Origin: Candidatus Thorarchaeota archaeon
GTDB taxonomy: Archaea; Asgardarchaeota; Heimdallarchaeia; Hodarchaeales; Hodarchaeaceae
Length of the DNA stretch: 32,000 nt
Reading direction: 5' to 3'
NCBI GenBank assembly: GCA_048882505.1
Contig: JBHLRO010000002.1
Span: 330,001-362,000, forward strand
Of the stretch, positions 2,466 to 6,542 are shown piece after piece. A program made the position numbers and the translations under genes. Numbering within the stretch: position 1 is the stretch's first letter; each line of letters begins with the position of its first letter. The notes beneath the pieces are model-generated. The model was not told the DNA's origin, ran no database searches, and worked only from the letters and a program-made list of their open reading frames with translations.

Positions 2466-5216
2466 TCAACTTAAAATTCTTAGTTGATCCTCTAGTAGAG
2501 ATTTTTTGATCTCCAGTTCTGACAATTTCCCCTTTTCCCGTTCAACAATTTCAGGAGGCGCCCGTTTCCCGAAAGGACCATTCAGCTTATAAGTGGTAGC
2601 AGAAATATCTTTCGTGATTTTGGTCAAATTTATTTCGATTCGCTGTTTCTCCTTTTCCAAATCTATAATTTCTTCAAGGGGGACATAGGCAGTAATTTCC
2701 GGAAGAACTACCCGTGCTGCCCGCTGGGGAGAATCCAAAATTGATGACATGACTAATTTTTGAGGATCTAGTTTTGCAAGTGCCACAATTTCCTCTCGGG
2801 TTGCTTCAAAGGCTGGCGCATATTCTCCGGGATTTATAAGAAAAGGAATCTTGGCCCCTAGATTCACATTATAGTCCCCGCGAATTCTTCTGATCTCACG
2901 AATTAGCTCCATGGTAAGAAGAAATTCCTTTTCTAGATCAATATCAATGAGGTCATCACGGTATTTTGGCCATTCGGTCACGATCAAGGCAGGTTGAACC
3001 CGTATTGAGTTTGGAAGTCGCTGCCACAGTTTTTCAGTAACGAATGGCATGATAGGATGGAGCAAGCGAAGAGTAGTGTCTAAAACATGAAGTAAAATAA
3101 CCTTGGGAGCGACTTTGACCTCCTCATTGATTCCATGGAGCCGAATCTTGCTGATCTCAAGATACCAGTCGCAAAACTCACTCCAATAAAAGTTTTTTAT
3201 GTCACGAGCGGCTTTTAGGTAATCCATTTCTTCTATGGATGCAGTTACCGATCTGACGGTCTGATGTAATCGCGATAATATCCACTTATCAGCGAATCTC
3301 AGAGTTGGAGCGATTTCATCCAGAGTTGGGAATGTTTCTCCTTTTTGGACATGGCTGAGGACATATTTAGCAGATTGCCAGACCTTATTGGCAAATCGAT
3401 GAGCCGCCTCAAGTTGTCTGGGATCAAGATTGATATCAATACCTGGAATGGTGTTCGATATCAGAACAAAACGTAAACAATCCGCTCCATATTCCTTAAT
3501 TATATTTAATGGATCATATTCTTCCACATCTTCCATAGATTTACTTATTTTCCGCCCTCGTTCATCTCTGATAATTCCATGCAGATATACCGTACGATAA
3601 GGGGTTACTCCTGTTAATTCATTGCCCAACATCATTTCTCGAGCGACCCAGAAAAAAAGGATATCATAGCCAGTTTCCCTGGTATCAGTTGGATAGAATC
3701 GCTGAAAATCTGGGTGTGAGGTGTCCGGCCAATGGAGGGTGGAAAAGGTCCACAAACCACTTGAGAACCAGGTATCCAGAACGTCCTCTTCTTTAACCAA
3801 ATTCTTACTGCCACACCTGGAACATTCAGCAAGTTCGTCCACATTCGGAGATGGGCAGATTTCTTCCGAACAATCTTCACAGTACCATATGGGAATCCGA
3901 TGACCCCACCAGAGCTGACGAGAAATACACCAATCTCTAATGTTTTCCATCCATTGGAAAAATCTTTTTTCCTCCCTCTTAGGAATAATTACTGTTTCAC
4001 CTTTACGGACTTTCTCCATAGCCGCCTCTGCCAGGGGTTTTGTTTTTACGAACCATTGAATTGATACTCGTGGTTCGATCACAGTAGCACATCTTTGACA
4101 ATGGGGTTCTGTATGAACGTATGGTTCTATCTTAACTAGCAGTCCCTCCTGTTCTAGATCTTTCACAATAGCTGTTCGACCTTCCTCCCGTTTCATTCCG
4201 GCGTACGGCCCTGAAACATGTGGAAGTAGACGTGCTTTTTCATCTAAAACTGTTACGACATCTAAATCATGTCTTACTCCGATTTCGAAGTCATTTGGGT
4301 CATGTCCTGGCGTGACCTTCAGAGCTCCTGTTCCAACTTCGGGATCGACGTATTTGTCTGAAAAAATGGGGATCTGCCGGCCTAATATTGGGAGAATGGC
4401 GTTTTGGCCAACAAATTTCGAGAATTTATTGTGATCAGGGGTTGTAGCAACTCCTGTATCCCCTAATAGAGTTTCAGGACGAGTAGTTGCCACAACAATA
4501 AATTCTTTTGCTCCTTTTGCCCAATTTCCACTACCCCATTCTGATTTGGGGCCTTTCCAGGTAGGCGTCAAAACTGGGTATTTTATATACCAGAGATGGC
4601 TTGAAGTGTCCTTCGGTTCTGTTTCTAGATCAGAAATGGCCGATTCGCAACGTGGGCACCAATTGACCATGTATTCGCCACGATAGATCAATCCCTTCTG
4701 ATATAAGCGGTAAAAAGCTTCACGTACTGCTCTTGTACAGACTTCATCCAATGTGAAACGTTCACGGATCCAGTCACTACTCATCCCCATCTTTTTTGAT
4801 TGCTCCGTGATTCGAGCATGATAAATTTCCTTCCATTCCCATACTTTTTCTACGAACTTTTTTCTCCCGAGTTTTTTTCTCTTAATCCCTTGCTTTAAGA
4901 GTTCTCGTTCTACAACGCTCTGTGTTGCAATTCCTGCATGGTCTGTTCCAGGCATGAACAGCGTTTCTTTTTGCTGCATCCGAGCGTACCGGGTCATGAG
5001 ATCCTCAATGGAAATGGTCATCGCGTGACCTTGATGGAGACGACCTGTAATATTTGGCAGCGGTATAGTAATGCAAAATCTGGGACTTGTCTCCCGATCC
5101 ACGAGGCCTAGTTTAATTTGTGTCTCTGGACGAAAAAATTCATTGGACTCCCAGAACTTGTAAATTTCCTCTTCGAATTCACTGGGATCGTAAGCCTTAG
5201 CTAGCTCTTTTTCCAT
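2466..5216 (-). CDS. valS: Valine--tRNA ligase, bacterial-type with C-terminal coiled-coil arm
   Basis: HIGH variant HQGH (5025-5036), KMSKS variant KISKS (3537-3551), GTDHAGIATQ, TTRPET, DWCISRQLWWGHRIP, DVLDTWFSS, FCDWYLE and a C-terminal arm ending APPEIVEREKGKL. Confidence 0.97.
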   Translation of the reverse strand: MEKELAKAYDPSEFEEEIYKFWESNEFFRPETQIKLGLVDRETSPRFCITIPLPNITGRLHQGHAMTISIEDLMTRYARMQQKETLFMPGTDHAGIATQSVVERELLKQGIKRKKLGRKKFVEKVWEWKEIYHARITEQSKKMGMSSDWIRERFTLDEVCTRAVREAFYRLYQKGLIYRGEYMVNWCPRCESAISDLETEPKDTSSHLWYIKYPVLTPTWKGPKSEWGSGNWAKGAKEFIVVATTRPETLLGDTGVATTPDHNKFSKFVGQNAILPILGRQIPIFSDKYVDPEVGTGALKVTPGHDPNDFEIGVRHDLDVVTVLDEKARLLPHVSGPYAGMKREEGRTAIVKDLEQEGLLVKIEPYVHTEPHCQRCATVIEPRVSIQWFVKTKPLAEAAMEKVRKGETVIIPKREEKRFFQWMENIRDWCISRQLWWGHRIPIWYCEDCSEEICPSPNVDELAECSRCGSKNLVKEEDVLDTWFSSGLWTFSTLHWPDTSHPDFQRFYPTDTRETGYDILFFWVAREMMLGNELTGVTPYRTVYLHGIIRDERGRKISKSMEDVEEYDPLNIIKEYGADCLRFVLISNTIPGIDINLDPRQLEAAHRFANKVWQSAKYVLSHVQKGETFPTLDEIAPTLRFADKWILSRLHQTVRSVTASIEEMDYLKAARDIKNFYWSEFCDWYLEISKIRLHGINEEVKVAPKVILLHVLDTTLRLLHPIMPFVTEKLWQRLPNSIRVQPALIVTEWPKYRDDLIDIDLEKEFLLTMELIREIRRIRGDYNVNLGAKIPFLINPGEYAPAFEATREEIVALAKLDPQKLVMSSILDSPQRAARVVLPEITAYVPLEEIIDLEKEKQRIEINLTKITKDISATTYKLNGPFGKRAPPEIVEREKGKLSELEIKKSLLEDQLRILS

Positions 5217-5553: not shown

Positions 5554-5784
5554 TTATTTGCTTGCTGCCAGCCGAATATCTACTTCTTTGACAGTTCTAC
5601 GTCCTGAGTGTTTTGCAATATCCACTGCATATCGCGAAACATTCATTCCATAGTCGGTTAATACCTCATTCAATCGATAAACCGCATCAGCAGATACACG
5701 GAATGCACCGGCGTCGCGAATCACCTTTTCTACTCGTGCCCTGGCAAAGCCTGACTTCCGTCTTGCTTTAGTTCGTTTGGACAT
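5554..5784 (-). CDS. Archaeal histone (HMf family) with short basic N-terminal tail
   Basis: DAGAFRVS and HSGRRTVKEVDI match the HMfB motifs DAGAERVS and HAGRKTIKAEDI. An AGGTGA SD lies 6 nt upstream of the ATG, with a TATA box upstream and an oligo-T tract downstream. Confidence 0.96.
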   Translation of the reverse strand: MSKRTKARRKSGFARARVEKVIRDAGAFRVSADAVYRLNEVLTDYGMNVSRYAVDIAKHSGRRTVKEVDIRLAASK

Positions 5785-5860
5785 TTACTTTCACCTTTTT
5801 TCCATCTAGTGTGTTGTGGGCCTGTTAAAAGAGCCACAGAAAACAGAAATACCGTCATTA

Positions 5861-5880
5861 TTTATAAATTTTATTTTTTT
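5861..5880 (-). promoter_or_regulatory. BRE/TATA promoter candidate for the histone gene
   Basis: TTTATAAA at 5861-5868 is preceded on the minus strand by an A-rich run, about 77 nt upstream of the ATG. Confidence 0.55.
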
Positions 5881-6347: not shown

Positions 6348-6542
6348 ATGTATAAGGACAGGGACAATATTGTGAAAAAGCGTGGTAGATATAAAATGAG
6401 TAAAATTAAACCCACTAAACGGATTATCGAACCAGATGAACATGCTGGGAATGATAAGGAGGAGGATTCTGAGGAGAATTACGATGAGGACGACGATGAA
6501 GATTATTATGAGGATTATGACGAAGATTATATCAGATACTAA
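6348..6542 (+). CDS. Small protein with basic N-terminus and D/E/Y-rich acidic tail (start 6348 or 6396)
   Basis: Stop-free frame with 21 Asp/Glu and 6 Tyr in the last 37 aa. Mixed synonymous codons (GAT/GAC/GAA/GAG) suggest protein-level selection rather than slippage. Confidence 0.65.
   Translation: MYKDRDNIVKKRGRYKMSKIKPTKRIIEPDEHAGNDKEEDSEENYDEDDDEDYYEDYDEDYIRY

Follow-up and report, generated by a model that had tools for sequence, protein, structure and literature searches.

Tailed histones have already been published from Asgard archaea, and the characterised work concerns a long-tailed type. Henneman et al. (2018) described tailed histones in Heimdall LC_3 and modelled the tail as leaving the hypernucleosome via aligned minor grooves, with an exit helped by three arginines adjoining the fold (PMC6136690). 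The long-tailed HMpB.1 and HMpB.2 (Hod-HC1), HLoB (Lokiarchaeum) and LC_3 HA all carry a disordered K/R-rich extension on a nucleosomal fold. Cho et al. found long-tailed HLoB and HMpB to be very abundant and methylated on tail lysines, and a GNAT and a sirtuin to act on such tails (bioRxiv 10.64898/2026.07.02.735847). Post-translational modifications have been demonstrated for the long-tailed type only. For HHoB of Hodarchaeales LC_3 (PDB 9QV5/9QV6/9QV7), the wrapping of DNA into hypernucleosomes was shown by cryo-EM (10.1101/2025.05.24.653377); both HHoB and HMpA of Ca. Margulisarchaeum peptidiphilum HC1 are tail-less (MAG/MSG-F...).

Whether the tails of eukaryotic histones, and the marks that they carry, descend from Asgard tails is an open question. 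In "Nucleosomes at the Dawn of Eukaryotes", Asgard tails were described as alternating small and positive residues in a manner "reminiscent of H3 tails"; no tri- or tetramers common to Asgard and eukaryotic tails were found, the two being "not obviously homologous", and AT-rich leaders were proposed as a source from which tails may readily arise (PMC10919886). Direct evidence of descent would have come from an ARTK/ARKS-like tail had one been conserved in a Hodarchaeale. An initial annotation of the window, the whole stretch of 32,000 nucleotides analysed here, had described an H3-like tail on a small archaeal histone, as a possible modifiable proto-tail or H3-tail precursor. We found this protein to belong to a group of short-tailed histones that is not treated as a separate group, nor studied experimentally, in the literature cited here. 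Supplementary Table 2 of 10.64898/2026.07.02.735847 gives six histones for HC1, a cultured Hodarchaeale, and the short KRKAG tail is absent from all of them.

A nucleosomal histone preceded by a short basic tail

The gene (Table 1) lies in an assembly of 4.3 Mb (83 contigs, 94.6% complete). Its ORF translates into a 76-amino-acid product that begins with MSKRTKARRKSG, then FARARVEK; after the tail the protein runs on as FARARVEKVIRDAG.... In the Pfam search it matched both PF00808 (archaeal histone/CBF-NFY, E=9e-12) and PF00125 (core histone, E=4e-7), each above the cut-off. The top match among solved structures (phmmer against the PDB) was the Hodarchaeal HHoB, determined by cryo-EM (9qv5/9qv6, E=2e-25), with 45 of the 66 aligned residues identical (68%, counted by hand on the alignment). 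It was followed by HPhA, HMfB and HMfA at E values of about 1e-10 to 1e-11. The HMfB match (E=9e-11) aligned residues 16-74 of the query with 6-64 of HMfB, and we took from it the register used below, in which residue n of HMfB is n+10 in the window protein. An AlphaFold2 model computed with 50 relatives as input displayed a confident histone fold (mean pLDDT 88.5, and more than 90 over the fold) with three helices.

Table 1. Features of the histone locus and related genes in the same genome. Positions without a prefix are those of the window; C and G000 prefixes denote contigs and the genome.
Feature	Position	Strand	Description and basis
Histone gene	5554..5784	(-)	231-nt ORF, 76 codons + TAA stop, monocistronic; ORF list, PF00808/PF00125, HHoB matches
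N-terminal tail MSKRTKARRKSG	5749..5784	(-)	Codons 1-12, disordered, net charge +6; sequence, AlphaFold model, tail-family alignments
Histone fold	5557..5748	(-)	alpha1 15-24, alpha2 32-59, alpha3 67-75; AlphaFold model, HHoB/HPhA/HMfB alignments, invariant columns
Purine-rich leader GAGAAAAGGTGAAA	5785-5803	(-)	Ahead of nearly all Hodarchaeal histone genes
Shine-Dalgarno GGTGA	5791..5795	(-)	6 nt ahead of ATG, inside leader GAGAAAAGGTGAAA
TATA-like box TTTATAAATA	5859..5868	(-)	~80 nt upstream of ATG, putative; read from sequence
ValRS gene	2466-5216	(-)	Adjoins histone gene
Small ORF	6348-6542	(+)	Basic N-end, acidic C-end studded with Trp/Tyr
Tail-less histones (several)			MSG-F..., MAGG-F..., MATS-F...
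Divergent histone paralogue	C15:18715-18903	(+)	
Histone doublet	G000:C32:6946-7362 (L003/L005)	(+)	~143 aa, two folds, Pro/Ser/Lys linker
Histone-fold protein	G000:C3:4302-4487 (L008)	(-)	359 aa: N-terminal histone fold, middle domain, very basic C-terminal tail
HDAC-family gene	G000:C15:15201-16058	(+)	2.6 kb from the divergent histone
HDAC-like gene and GNAT gene	C1:388383-389048, C1:390859-391134	(-), (-)	1.8 kb apart

The criteria for a nucleosomal histone are, in HMfB numbering, R19, the R52-K53-T54 "RKT" loop, L46, H49, D59, L62 and a small residue at G16 (PMC6136690). The corresponding DNA-binding and tetramer-interface residues are present in the window protein (R29, R62-R63-T64, I56, H59, D69, L72, and G26), most of them invariant in its family. 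By fold and key residues it is thus an archaeal nucleosomal histone of the HMfB/HHoB type (PF00808). The dimer-dimer residues of HHoB (Y44, I48, H51, R54, D61, and K68; 10.1101/2025.05.24.653377) are kept as Y52, I56, H59, R62, D69, and K76, so that closed or open hypernucleosome wrapping is expected of this protein; likewise, its 68% identity to HHoB suggests that it would wrap DNA as dimers stacking into (hyper)nucleosomes. HMpB.1 and LC_3 HA differ from it at the tetramer interface by an H-to-N replacement, the window protein keeping H59.

The fold is preceded by twelve residues, of which six are Lys or Arg, with RTK at 4-6 and RKS at 9-11, in that order. The N-terminus is 10 residues longer than that of HMfB and nine longer than those of the tail-less paralogues in the same genome (MSG-FARARVEK). 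Compared with HHoB and HMpA, the window protein has nine extra, basic residues between the Met and SG. In the model, residues 1-10 have a mean pLDDT of 50 and secondary structure begins at residue 15. The Pfam and PDB matches, the model and the context of the start codon (see below) thus bear out the initial description, coordinates included, and show the protein to be an archaeal (Asgard) histone with a real, translated, basic and disordered N-terminal tail.

Paralogues and taxonomic distribution

We identified eight histone-fold genes in the genome; a basic N-terminal tail is encoded by the window gene alone. The second fold of the doublet on contig C32 stops early (...DIMV); the doublet is kept as frames of 142-158 amino acids in many congeners, and doublets of Hodarchaeales were mentioned previously (PMC10919886). 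The 359-amino-acid protein on C3 probably corresponds to the fusion of a histone with Roadblock/LC7 that the same work reports from Hodarchaeales.

The closest named records were metagenome-assembled genomes, namely Candidatus Heimdallarchaeota isolate TM2S.58 (histone 97% identical), Hodarchaeota, Hodarchaeum mangrovi and B3_Heim. We searched the genomes of 60 relatives and recovered close homologues from each of the 21 other species in the GTDB genus, as well as from the two genomes of a second family of the order; there were none at E<=1e-10 in the 37 genomes from five other families of the class. This distribution fits the published picture in which nucleosomal histones are a feature of Hodarchaeales among Heimdallarchaeia.

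A family of short-tailed histones

Searching 5.8 billion proteins, we obtained 83 relatives, to which whole-genome searches added others. They fall into three classes: tail-less proteins (M-S/A/T-G-F...), long-tailed proteins of the published HMpB/LC_3 HA type (MAKKK...AAPAKK..., 14-28 residues), and about 35 short-tailed proteins from Hodarchaeales genomes and metagenomes, with 8-12 residues ahead of the Phe. The consensus of the short-tailed class is M-[VTAP]-K-K-[TPSGA]-K-R-K-A-G, and that of its 12-residue subset M-x-K-[KR]-[TSG]-[KR]-x-[KR]-R-[KR]-[AGS]-G. Position 2 is always a small residue, and removal of the Met is expected. Among 22 short-tailed proteins, K3, K8, R9, K10 and A11 were at least 90% conserved and G12 was invariant. 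The window protein is 67-83% identical to 21 short-tailed members, carries K3, R8, R9, K10, G12 and GAFRVSADAVYRLNE, and thereby conforms to the group (consensus MxKKxKRKAG-FASARVEK...GAFRVSADA.YRLNE), whose hallmarks are a basic arm of 7-11 residues ending in [KR]-R-[KR]-small-G and the fold signatures GAFRVSADA and YRLNE.

The long-tailed histones belong to the same order or superphylum as the window species, and share with the window protein a basic cluster beside the fold and a small residue at position 2, with removal of the Met expected. Their tails are nevertheless of another kind (about 16-32 residues, rich in K, A and P, more than 30% Lys), the window tail having 11 residues after Met removal and three Lys (27%). 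For this comparison, HMpA and HMpB were read from the sequences of the published supplement. In the tree based on the fold only, the tail-less proteins formed one supported clade (97/91) and the seven core long-tailed proteins their own clade (100/99), with the window protein outside. The short-tailed proteins, including that of the window, formed an unresolved grade in this tree, which has few columns.

Tails of 8, 9, 10 and 12 residues were scattered over the tree, and "small-basic" dipeptide units seem to have been gained and lost readily, judging from these sequences. Nor did the fold-only tree support the view that the tail, or its 12-residue length, arose only once, being short on columns and having the 12-residue tails dispersed in it.

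The comparison thus leaves a well-defined family of short-tailed paralogues, conserved across one Hodarchaeal genus and recurring in metagenomes. Its tail is the smallest of its kind and would make it easy to test what the archaeal hypernucleosome gains from a minimal histone tail.

A proposed DNA-contacting arm and an alternative signalling platform

We favor, with a probability of roughly 0.8, the reading that the window protein is a short-tailed Hodarchaeal nucleosomal-histone paralogue whose tail is a basic, DNA-contacting arm, RTK and RKS being lineage-specific and not inherited H3 motifs. The family pattern can be written small-K-[K/R]-small-[K/R]-(small-[K/R])-R-[K/R]-small-G, with 7-11 residues after Met removal. 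Selection would maintain a pattern in which small and basic residues take turns, with the K/R-R-K triad next to the fold kept most strongly, and let the small positions drift freely. The fold would dimerise and, like HHoB and HMfB, wrap DNA into hypernucleosomes, which could consist of this histone only or include the tail-less paralogues as well. The arm would leave the N-terminus of alpha1 beside the DNA, with [KR]-R-[KR] lying in or across the minor groove between gyres, by analogy with the model of the longer LC_3 HA tail (PMC6136690), and only about five residues could protrude past the DNA. The likeliest role of the arm would be to strengthen or tune wrapping and compaction by adding about six positive charges per monomer. 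The histone list of the cultured HC1, in which short-tailed paralogues do not appear, counts against this overall reading. Acetylation or methylation of lysines might provide a secondary control, by analogy with the long-tailed HLoB and HMpB, and it is possible in this sense that the short tail is modifiable.

The tail could instead be mainly a signalling platform, with K3, K6 and K10 reversibly acetylated or methylated, rather than a structural arm. The long-tailed Asgard histones do carry abundant methylation of their tail lysines, such tails are substrates of LoHAT2 and LoSIR2b in vitro (10.64898/2026.07.02.735847), and the family consensus is dominated by lysine and not arginine. We also detected 37 GNAT matches (about 35 genes), two SIR2 genes and three HDAC-family genes in the genome. 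GNAT and SIR2 are the enzyme classes that act on Lokiarchaeal histone tails in vitro, yet they are, like HDAC, ubiquitous in prokaryotes, as our control genomes confirmed. Moreover, the tail is only 7-11 residues long in the family, and its best-conserved part, the fold-proximal KRK, should sit in or against the DNA. In the lineage of the window, the replacements K4R and K8R keep the charge but remove modifiable sites, so that we favor a role based on charge over one based on marks, and a mainly signalling function appears unlikely, if still worth considering.

Two proximities were observed among these enzyme genes: the HDAC-family gene on C15 lies close to the divergent histone paralogue, and an HDAC-like gene and a GNAT gene are close to each other on C1 (Table 1).

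Likeness to the H3 tail

In the window tail, as in the H3 tail (ARTKQTARKS...), small residues alternate with basic ones and, in this lineage only, RTK and (R)RKS occur in the same order. With the expected removal of the Met, the numbering of R8-K9-S10 also coincides with that of H3, where these three residues stand more than 30 residues away from the fold; in the window protein they touch it.

We compared the window tail, and composition-preserving shuffles of it, with the established sequences of eukaryotic core-histone tails. The exact order RTK...RKS occurred in 0.39% of the shuffles and the loose form [RK]T[RK]...[RK][RK]S in 4.2%. In local alignments to H3, 7.6% of the shuffles scored as well as the window tail (p 0.076), and 24.5% matched at least as well any of the four core-histone tails (p 0.245). 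The score of the window tail against H3 (26) was the same as that of the family tail TKKTKRKAG, the family ranging from 14 to 26. The rarity of the exact arrangement and the coincidence in numbering of R8-K9-S10 both count against the reading of the likeness as a coincidence. Given about 31 distinct tails in the family and a choice of several famous eukaryotic motifs, a single match of this kind is not surprising. Among the frames of at least 100 amino acids in the genome (1.48 M residues), RTK.{0,4}RKS occurred 0 times and the loose form seven times; this genome-wide rarity says nothing about a K/R-rich tail.

It was the alignment of orthologues that decided the question. Among the 31 distinct tails, and among the 12 congeneric species with a short-tailed gene, RTK...RKS was present only in the window and in one sister (G016, loci L018/L047), which also carries MSKRTKARRKSG, is syntenic for the ValRS gene and differs from the window histone by two amino acids. 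The other congeneric tails were of the type MVKKTKRKAG, MTKKPKRKAG, MAKKAKRKAG, MAKRPKRKAG and MAKKKKAG. The H3-like positions are those that drift: R4 is usually K, T5 is exchanged with P, S, G or A, and S11 is A in nearly all other members. RTK and RKS would then be draws from the family pattern, by K4R, a T at a variable small position and A11S. What the orthologues keep is essentially a generic basic composition, an outcome that the initial annotation had named as refuting its reading; the small/basic alternation and the fold-proximal KRK are conserved and the H3 motifs are not. The caution of the initial annotation that short basic peptides converge easily proved justified; the conservation of RTK/RKS in orthologues, which it had proposed to check, did not hold, the exact string being limited to the window species and one sister. 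The H3 likeness looks like a lineage-specific coincidence within a generic small/basic pattern, in line with the literature, in which Asgard tails are seen as similar to eukaryotic ones in composition only.

A functional convergence, in which the tail of this lineage drifted or was selected into a look-alike of the H3 tip, with RTK and RRKS, and R8-K9-S10 at the mature positions of H3, read or written by lysine-modifying enzymes in the manner of H3K4/K9 and, at the extreme, a foothold from which the H3 tail grew, seems to us very improbable. SET domains (PF00856) were not found by profile search in this 94.6%-complete genome, the positive control being detected in M. acetivorans. Chromo (PF00385), PHD (PF00628) and MYST (PF01853) domains were not found either, but these are weak blanks, as the prokaryote controls included no positive control for them. 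Among the genes whose presence the initial annotation had proposed to check, GNAT was the one recovered, SET, chromo and PHD remaining undetected.

A true evolutionary relationship to the H3 N-terminal tail, as its relative or precursor and with RTK standing for K4 and RKS for K9/S10, is hardly credible. The order of the motifs, their rarity in the shuffles and the mature numbering of R8-K9-S10 speak for it, but no other member of the family has the motifs, 11 congeneric species among them, and T5 and S11 are the least conserved positions. In addition, S11-G12 match the "MSG/MAG" with which the tail-less paralogues begin and abut helix 1, which places the "S10-like" serine at the edge of the fold, just two residues before that helix, and not in an exposed tail. 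The H3 tail has roughly 35-40 residues before its alpha-N helix, versus 11 in the window protein, which has no alpha-N helix (no helix before residue 15 in the AlphaFold2 model). The only eukaryotic PDB matches of the window protein were two H4 chains (7wlr_B and 9lox_B, E about 2e-3), with no H3 chain among the phmmer matches, and the alignment score to H3 was not significant. The lack of detected SET, chromo and PHD domains and the published k-mer analysis, with no shared tail tri- or tetramers (PMC10919886), point the same way. The specific relationship to H3 put forward in the initial annotation thus appears already largely refuted by the alignment of orthologues, which keep MxKKxKRKAG.

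Start codon, leader and upstream elements

An in-frame TAA directly precedes the ATG (at 5784), and there is no in-frame ATG, GTG or TTG between codon 1 and the next possible start, a GTG at codon 21 within helix 1, as the initial annotation had correctly noted for the region ahead of the fold. The leader, GAGAAAAGGTGAAA(N3-6)ATG, precedes nearly all Hodarchaeal histone genes, both tail-less and short-tailed, with the same spacing (loci L017-L126). The start is secure because the TAA is followed by the ATG, GGTGA is located at 6 nt, the next start is inside helix 1 and the leader is shared with the paralogues. Across 10 genomes, the codons for K-R-K-A-G vary synonymously (AGA/AGG, GCA/GCT/GCG, and GGT/GGC) and the amino acids are unchanged; the tail is thus translated and under purifying selection. 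Between the window and its sister, the tail codons are identical in nucleotides and the whole gene differs by six codons (four synonymous and two non-synonymous), a comparison that is uninformative on selection of the tail.

The possibility that the tail is an annotation artefact, with the true start downstream and a tail-less protein, is practically negligible. Over-extended starts reading through the purine-rich leader do exist in database relatives (e.g., ...EKKVKRK-MAG in P0043, P0044, and P0038), but here no in-frame start lies between codons 1 and 21, the TAA stands just before the ATG, GGTGA is at the canonical 6-nt spacing and the tail is kept at the protein level with synonymous codon variation.

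Public "tailed" histones such as P0038, P0043, P0044 and P0033 have ...EKKVKRK-MAG or ...RKGDKI-MSG ahead of the fold. These extensions are probably not real tails; their sequences suggest over-extended start calls in which the ribosome-binding leader was translated.

The tail-coding insert (e.g., AAA AAG ACA AAA AGA AAA) matched the shared leader GAGAAAAGGTGAAAAGAAAA at 14 of 19 positions when right-aligned by hand, with GGTG opposite GACA. This match hints at a birth of the tail by duplication or capture of the leader, which we do not claim, the match being indistinguishable from Lys/Arg codon bias. A leader-derived tail would fit the "easy come, easy go" idea of PMC10919886.

Further upstream, TTTATAAATA is inferred from the sequence to be a putative archaeal promoter element, and from this box down to the ATG the sister genome has almost the same sequence. 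A scan for sigma-70 promoters and terminators gave background counts, with a model that is not applicable to archaea.

Neighborhood of the histone gene

The histone gene adjoins a ValRS gene with a C-terminal tRNA-binding arm (PF10458, E=4.5e-10), and this adjacency is kept in the sister genome. On its other side, the window contains a small ORF (Table 1) without Pfam matches, like the other small ORFs of this kind (31-64 amino acids), which are located 0.5-1.5 kb from the short-tailed histone gene (also at L055, L056, L057, and L047). Their orientation is not conserved, and in the sister locus L047 the frame is cut to a 20-amino-acid stop-to-stop piece. Such small ORFs were present at four of the 13 short-tail loci (64 kb) and in the window, versus 0 of the 67 other histone loci (370 kb).
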